Below are positions 5,508-5,839 of a stretch of DNA of 64,000 nucleotides, piece by piece. How positions within the stretch are numbered: the first letter of the stretch is position 1; every line of letters starts with the position of its first letter. Source of the DNA: Escherichia coli (GTDB taxonomy: Bacteria; Pseudomonadota; Gammaproteobacteria; Enterobacterales; Enterobacteriaceae); the NCBI RefSeq assembly GCF_003334785.1, contig NZ_QOWV01000010.1; one strand, 5' to 3'. The translations under genes were made by a program, and so were the position numbers. The notes beneath the pieces were generated by a model. The model saw only the letters and a list, made by a program, of their open reading frames with translations, was not told the origin of the DNA and searched no databases.

Positions 5508-5603
5508 TCCTTTGTCCTCTTTGGGGTAAATGTCCCTTTCAACATCATTGACTTTCAAATGCGAGTCAAATGCATTTTTTTGCAAAAAGTGTTGGACAAG
5601 TGC

Positions 5604-5623
5604 GAATGAGAATGATTATTATT
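5604..5623. promoter_or_regulatory. Fur box overlapping the ryhB promoter
   Basis: gaatgagaatgattattatt resembles the Fur consensus GATAATGATAATCATTATC and sits immediately upstream of the RyhB 5' end. Confidence 0.7.
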
Positions 5624-5628
5624 GTCTC

Positions 5629-5718
5629 GCGATCAGGAAGACCCTCGCGGAGAACCTGAAAGCACGACATTGCTCACATTGCTTCCAGTATTACTTAGCC
5701 AGCCGGGTGCTGGCTTTT
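5629..5718 (+). ncRNA. ryhB: RyhB, Fur-repressed iron-sparing small RNA (~90 nt)
   Basis: Sequence gcgatcaggaagaccctcgcggagaacctgaaagcacgacattgctcacattgcttccagtattacttagccagccgggtgctggctttt matches remembered RyhB, ending in a hairpin (agccagccgggtgctggct) plus T-run; lies between yhhY and yhhX as expected. Confidence 0.9.
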
Positions 5719-5839
5719 TTTTTGATCTTTCGTTCTCAATTTATCCACGGGAGTGCTTGTGTTCGTTATGCGCACTCCAGTAGGAACCACGTCCGCTTTG
5801 CGCTAAGGTGTAAATAACCACCTTAAAAAGGACGAAATC

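Follow-up and report, generated by a model that had tools for sequence, protein, structure and literature searches.

The 332-bp intergenic region at positions 5508-5839 of the window (the whole 64-kb stretch of Escherichia coli DNA that was analysed) almost certainly contains the orthologous E. coli ryhB gene, encoded on the + strand at 5629-5718 (5723 with the complete T-run) and preceded by its promoter (5593-5622) and Fur operator (5602-5626). RyhB has been among the best-studied bacterial small RNAs since 2001-2002, and the ryhB gene identified here is an already known gene and an exact copy of the reference. The initial annotation had likewise presented the locus as not novel, and the identical K-12 copy is indeed curated. 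The features that define the locus and its immediate surroundings are the following:

5019..5507, - strand: yhhY (N-acetyltransferase); the open reading frame (ORF) starts MSEIVIRH at the K-12 start, and the gene is annotated as yhhY in K-12 and E2865
5593..5622, + strand: ryhB sigma-70 promoter, with -35 TGGACA (5593-5598), an 18-nt spacer and -10 TATTAT (5617-5622)
5602..5626, unstranded: Fur-box cluster (operator), with 19-mers at 5608-5626 (15/19 on the + strand, 16/19 on the - strand) and 5602-5620 (14/19)
5629..5723, + strand: ryhB sRNA gene; the 90-nt RNA corresponds to 5629-5718, and the 95-nt K-12 RefSeq feature reaches the end of the T-run at 5723
5662..5688, + strand: target-pairing core GCACGACATTGCTCACATTGCTTCCAG, found as an exact 27-mer in at least 120 stretches of other taxa
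5697..5723, + strand: Rho-independent terminator, with stem AGCCAGC/GCTGGCT (5697-5703, 5709-5715), a 5-nt loop and nine T (5715-5723)
5724..5839, + strand: ryhB-yhhX spacer (116 nt), the putative leader and promoter region of yhhX
5840..6877, + strand: yhhX (putative oxidoreductase), a 345-aa ORF annotated as yhhX in K-12 and E2865

Identity and genomic setting of the ryhB gene

The interval comprises the entire yhhY/yhhX intergenic region, and all of its bases (332/332) are identical to those of the yhhX-yhhY intergenic region of E. coli K-12 MG1655, aligned to the reverse complement. The 90-nt K-12 RyhB sequence matches exactly at 5629-5718, and the curated K-12 ncRNA ryhB (b4451; 3580922-3581016, - strand) maps onto 5629-5723 of the window, on the + strand. 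A scan of all 64 kb with Rfam 15 at the gathering threshold detected a single family, RyhB (RF00057), which matched 5658-5722 on the + strand with a score of 83.1 bits (gathering score 55; E=3.6e-14) and spanned the model completely (positions 1-67 of 67). Because this 67-position model spans only the 3' two-thirds of RyhB, the 5' end of the RNA at 5629 is set by the curated K-12 gene and by its spacing from the -10 hexamer, which ends 6 nt before it.

The initial annotation had recognized RyhB in a ~90-nt sequence ending in a GC hairpin and T-run, and had proposed an Rfam scan at 5629-5718 and an alignment to K-12 ryhB as checks. The hairpin and T-run were found where it had placed them, both checks returned the results given above, and the identification is further borne out by synteny, by the Fur box and by the sodB seed. 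When both strands of 5400-5950 were scanned permissively against Rfam, no second known RNA emerged in the intergenic region. In that scan a match to PrrF (RF00444) was at chance level (21.3 bits; gathering score 90; E=0.29) and was set aside; PrrF1/PrrF2 of Pseudomonas, a Fur-repressed iron-sparing sRNA, is a functional analogue of RyhB and not a homologue. When 5629-5723 was folded as a single sequence, its minimum free energy (-24.1 kcal/mol; z=-0.67) did not surpass that of shuffled sequences, so that support for the RNA structure comes from the covariance model and from the changes in the terminator across species, not from thermodynamics.

The genomic setting of the gene is equally well preserved. 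The divergent yhhY gene lies upstream of ryhB and sets the left end of the intergenic region, and the yhhX ORF begins with MVINCAFIGFGK... at 5840 on the + strand. The order of genes in the window, ugpQ-yhhA-ggt-yrhB-yrhD-yrhA-yhhZ-yhhY-ryhB-yhhX-yhhW-gntR-gntK-gntU, is that of K-12, read in the opposite orientation. The locus shares with K-12 RyhB (b4451; RF00057) the RNA, the promoter, the Fur operator, the full intergenic region, the neighbours and their orientation and the sodB seed, with zero differences within 5508-5839. Outside this interval, yrhA is intact in the source strain (3113-3607), whereas in K-12 it is split by IS1E, indicating that the window does not derive from K-12 itself.

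The yhhY-proximal part of the intergenic region, at 5536-5573, presents two copies of the direct repeat TCAAATGC (11 nt apart) and two of CTTTCAA (16 nt apart), as well as an imperfect palindrome, TTGACT...AGTCAA, followed by a T-run of strain-variable length. These repeats and the palindrome may represent a candidate promoter or operator of yhhY.

Transcription signals and target pairing

The ryhB promoter matches the sigma-70 consensus at 10 of 12 positions and is the sole promoter-like site identified by a consensus scan of 5400-5950. A Fur-box-like element preceding the RNA had been reported in the initial annotation, as the string gaatgagaatgattattatt. This string is located at 5604-5623, within two overlapping Fur 19-mers, and its assignment is sustained by a scan that counted matches to the 19-bp consensus GATAATGATAATCATTATC on both strands of the whole window and compared them with shuffled sequences. 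The site at 5608-5626 is the top Fur-consensus match of the entire 64 kb on either strand, and the two matches of at least 15/19 both fall on the ryhB site, against a mean of 0.03 in the shuffles. Since the -10 hexamer of ryhB (5617-5622) falls within the Fur-box cluster, bound Fur would occlude the promoter. In K-12, the identical Fur site was scored at 25.2 bits at position -15 of ryhB, among the strongest predicted Fur clusters of the genome (Chen et al. 2007, PMC2189734), and binding of Fur to it was confirmed by gel shift (PMC2189734). Predicted repression of ryhB by iron through this operator is supported by the K-12 gel shift on an identical site.

The 3' end of the RNA is defined by a Rho-independent terminator with a 7-bp stem, five pairs of which are G-C, and this stem was identified concordantly by a terminator scan, as an inverted repeat and as paired positions in the Rfam alignment. 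Hfq binds and stabilises RyhB, and the 3' poly-U of RyhB is required for Hfq binding (PMC4509938); terminated RyhB co-purifies with Hfq, whereas 3'-extended RyhB does not (Morita et al. 2015, PMC4509938). By analogy, the 3' poly-U of the RNA encoded here is the predicted Hfq-binding tail. Polymerase reads through the ryhB terminator at ~20% in normally growing cells, and termination becomes more efficient under inducing stress (PMC4509938).

The conserved single-stranded pairing core of RyhB (GCACGACAUUGCUCACAUUGCUUCCAG) is present at 5662-5688 and contains the sodB seed GACATTGCT at 5666-5674, which corresponds to nucleotides 38-46 of RyhB. These nucleotides (GACAUUGCU) are perfectly complementary to positions -4..+5 of sodB, across its start codon, the pairing partner being K-12 sodB, which lies outside the window. 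A search for the longest perfect complement recovered this published 9-nt seed, and a complement of the same length was obtained with 20 of 2000 shuffled RyhB sequences. A global RNAduplex prediction between RyhB and the sodB initiation region produced an implausible 60-nt interaction that 17 of 300 shuffles equalled, and was dropped. The core also holds an 8-nt direct repeat, ACATTGCT, at 5667-5674 and 5676-5683, in the tandem arrangement ACATTGCT(C)ACATTGCT (5667-5683).

RyhB is an iron-sparing RNA that operates through Hfq-assisted pairing, translation block and RNase E-dependent decay. Under the mechanism proposed for the locus, Fe2+-Fur dimers would sit on the Fur-box cluster over the -10 hexamer when iron is plentiful, blocking transcription. 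When iron is scarce, Fur would depart and RNA polymerase would initiate at 5629 and end at the GC hairpin and U-run, releasing a ~90-nt RNA whose 3' poly-U and neighbouring AU-rich stretch would bind Hfq. The core at 5662-5688 would then pair with mRNAs that encode non-essential iron proteins, in the region where their translation begins, including sodB through nucleotides 38-46, and this pairing would block ribosome binding and lead to RNase E-dependent decay, sparing iron. This model of an iron-starvation-induced, Hfq-dependent ~90-nt RyhB lowering its target mRNAs is carried over from K-12 by analogy, and the function predicted for RyhB in the source strain is transferred on the strength of 100% identity.

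Conservation and distribution of ryhB

All but one of the 5426 complete E. coli genomes contain the 332-bp region (5425 genomes), in every case on the chromosome and at a median of one copy; a few of them have two or three copies. Identity of at least 99% holds for the promoter and RNA (5590-5723) in 5414 genomes, and for the complete 332-bp region in only 4718. When six divergent E. coli intergenic regions were aligned to that of the window, 5629-5723, the promoter hexamers and the Fur 19-mers showed no substitutions. Variable columns in this alignment were located at 5628 (the -1 position), in the length of the T-run near 5574, on the yhhY side, and in the spacer at 5726, 5735, 5740, 5747, 5751, 5818 and 5820.

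A single genome of the 5425, that of E. coli 23AR0151 (NZ_CP195448.1; a clinical isolate from sputum, New Zealand), falls below 95% identity over the promoter and RNA. It presents a third copy of the 9-nt repeat, ACATTGCTC, at ~1578-1586 of its locus. This 9-nt insertion represents slippage within the repeat that the RNA itself contains, and the expansion would give a 99-nt RyhB with a duplicated seed. At its end nearest yhhY, the intergenic region of this strain also contains a duplicated TCCT (4 nt).

Beyond E. coli, the stretches containing the exact 27-nt core belong to Enterobacterales, Aeromonas, Photobacterium, Aliivibrio, Salinivibrio (Vibrionaceae) and Zobellella. Among the matches listed, two core-bearing loci per genome are often observed (e.g. 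Yersinia, Photorhabdus, Serratia and Pantoea), 117 of 122 core copies of other species are preceded, within 110 nt, by a Fur 19-mer scoring 14/19 or higher, and most copies are followed 20-30 nt downstream of the core by a GC hairpin and T-run. The sequence of the terminator stem varies in both arms from one lineage to another (GCCAGC/GCTGGC, GCCCGC/GCGGGC, GGCCAG/CTGGCC). Other gammaproteobacterial RyhB RNAs (of the Salmonella RyhB-1/RyhB-2 type and those of Yersinia, Vibrio and Aeromonas) hence share with the E. coli gene the 27-nt core, the upstream Fur box and the GC-hairpin/U-run terminator, but differ from it in the 5' part, in the sequence of the terminator stem and in their neighbouring genes.

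With regard to these neighbours, 48 of the 120 loci listed have a divergent yhhY homologue whose start lies ~150-210 nt upstream of the core, including loci of Yersinia, Serratia, Pantoea, Hafnia and Rahnella. A downstream yhhX on the same strand, 75-1465 nt away, was detected in 24 of these 120 loci, all of them in the Enterobacteriaceae. Among the loci listed, the divergent pairing of yhhY and ryhB is thus far wider than the adjacency of ryhB and yhhX.

Two alternative interpretations of the locus itself can be weighed against this conservation pattern. The existence of mechanical ORFs at 5530-5817 (95 aa) and 5622-5783 (53 aa) could suggest that the region is protein-coding, or that RyhB is a dual-function RNA with a small ORF. 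Both ORFs, however, begin upstream of the RNA 5' end and cross the terminator hairpin and T-run, and no AUG occurs within the 90-nt RNA. The pattern of conservation is also that of an RNA: the 27-nt core is kept exactly, the two sides of the terminator stem co-vary, and the flanks are rich in indels. The natural 9-nt insertion of 23AR0151 preserves the frame, yet derives from repeat slippage. We therefore regard a coding role as extremely improbable. It is just as hard to credit that the locus is not the functional orthologue but a decayed remnant or a paralogue, an additional RyhB of the RyhB2/IsrE type. The paired core loci of many Enterobacterales make a paralogue conceivable, but E. coli genomes have a median of one such place, and the locus occupies the K-12 position with 100% identity; a remnant is at odds with a promoter, operator, core and terminator that are all intact. 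An orthologous, functional ryhB gene thus remains the preferred reading.

Downstream spacer, neighbouring genes and annotation

The 116-nt spacer separating ryhB from yhhX contains several elements that could bear on yhhX expression:

5747-5756/5772-5781 and 5804-5810/5819-5825: inverted repeats
5804-5809: candidate yhhX -10 hexamer, TAAGGT
5829-5832: yhhX Shine-Dalgarno sequence, AGGA

The spacer folds at -36.3 kcal/mol (z=-3.07; 0 of 200 shuffles as good), and in this fold 5727-5736 (CUUUCGUUCU), which closely follows the RyhB U-run, pairs with the region of the yhhX Shine-Dalgarno sequence at 5829-5838 (AGGACGAAAU). The length of the spacer varies between 39 and 290 nt across the Enterobacteriaceae, with many indels and with REP-like insertions, and only its last ~45 nt are conserved (GCGCTAWGGT...ACCTTAAAAAGGAC...ATG). 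In Enterobacter and Lelliottia, TGTTATGGT directly follows the RyhB T-run, leaving no room for anti-Shine-Dalgarno pairing, and within E. coli an A>C change at 5820 disrupts the hairpin 5804-5810/5819-5825. On the grounds of this variable length, lack of room and broken small hairpin, a conserved anti-Shine-Dalgarno element in the spacer was rejected, and the long-range pairing of 5727-5736 with 5829-5838 does not appear to be a conserved element. The TAAGGT hexamer at 5804-5809, part of a conserved TAWGGT block, is the putative -10 of a promoter of yhhX's own.

Co-transcription of ryhB and yhhX has been suspected, though not demonstrated (PMC4509938). A model can be envisaged in which the spacer acts as a regulatory leader, with Fur-dependent readthrough RNA kept silent for yhhX translation by pairing of the Shine-Dalgarno sequence and transcripts from the yhhX promoter being translated. 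We deem this model unlikely; if true, the leader would insulate yhhX from ryhB transcription, or couple both conditionally.

A related question is whether the Fur box chiefly serves yhhX, through readthrough, or the divergent yhhY, with the sRNA being incidental. According to the account given in PMC2189734, Vassinova and Kozyrev, using a Fur-titration screen, first attributed the Fur sites to yhhX, and such an assignment would draw on the readthrough at the ryhB terminator and on the lack of a second strong promoter-like site between ryhB and yhhX in the scan of 5400-5950. Nevertheless, the Fur cluster lies directly before ryhB and overlaps its -10 hexamer, a strong terminator follows RyhB, and the conserved TAWGGT block just upstream of yhhX suggests a separate promoter for this gene. 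Furthermore, the linkage of Fur box and RyhB core in 117 of the 122 copies listed holds in many that have no yhhX or yhhY nearby. A Fur box devoted mainly to either neighbour is thus improbable, and any effect of Fur on yhhX would be at most an addition to the control of RyhB, not a replacement for it.

On the far side of yhhY, the GC content drops to 30-35% between ~2750 and 5000, from ~50% on either side, in an islet with the following genes:

2863-3027, - strand: yrhD
3113-3607, - strand: yrhA, an intact ORF
3604-4782, - strand: yhhZ/tssD, a 392-aa Hcp-family protein with a C-terminal HNH-type motif

Only 3829 of the 5426 complete E. coli genomes carry this yhhZ/yrhA/yrhD islet, which is hence accessory. 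The initial annotation had described RyhB as embedded next to an accessory toxin islet, at ~0.8 kb. The distance is accurate, with the start of ryhB lying 847 bp from the start of yhhZ (4782), and the description stands as one of position, which K-12 shares; ryhB itself belongs to the core genome (5425 of 5426 genomes) and yhhY lies between the two. In strain PK8217, IS1 and IS5-like elements replace the islet, with yhhY, yhhX and the sequence between them undisturbed. The idea that ryhB and the islet are functionally linked was rejected, as the islet is absent or replaced by IS1/IS5 elements in some genomes that keep yhhY-ryhB-yhhX. The adjacency of ryhB to the Hcp-HNH toxin islet is therefore positional only.

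As an exact copy of the reference gene, the ryhB of this window carries little weight as a discovery, and its practical value lies in annotation. No feature is annotated under the ryhB match in any of the ~75 RefSeq/PGAP records listed, and among the records listed an annotated ryhB feature is found in the curated K-12 record alone. The view that this RNA gene is invisible to ORF-based annotation thus holds in practice: ryhB, present in all but one of the complete E. coli genomes surveyed, goes unannotated in the PGAP RefSeq records sampled.
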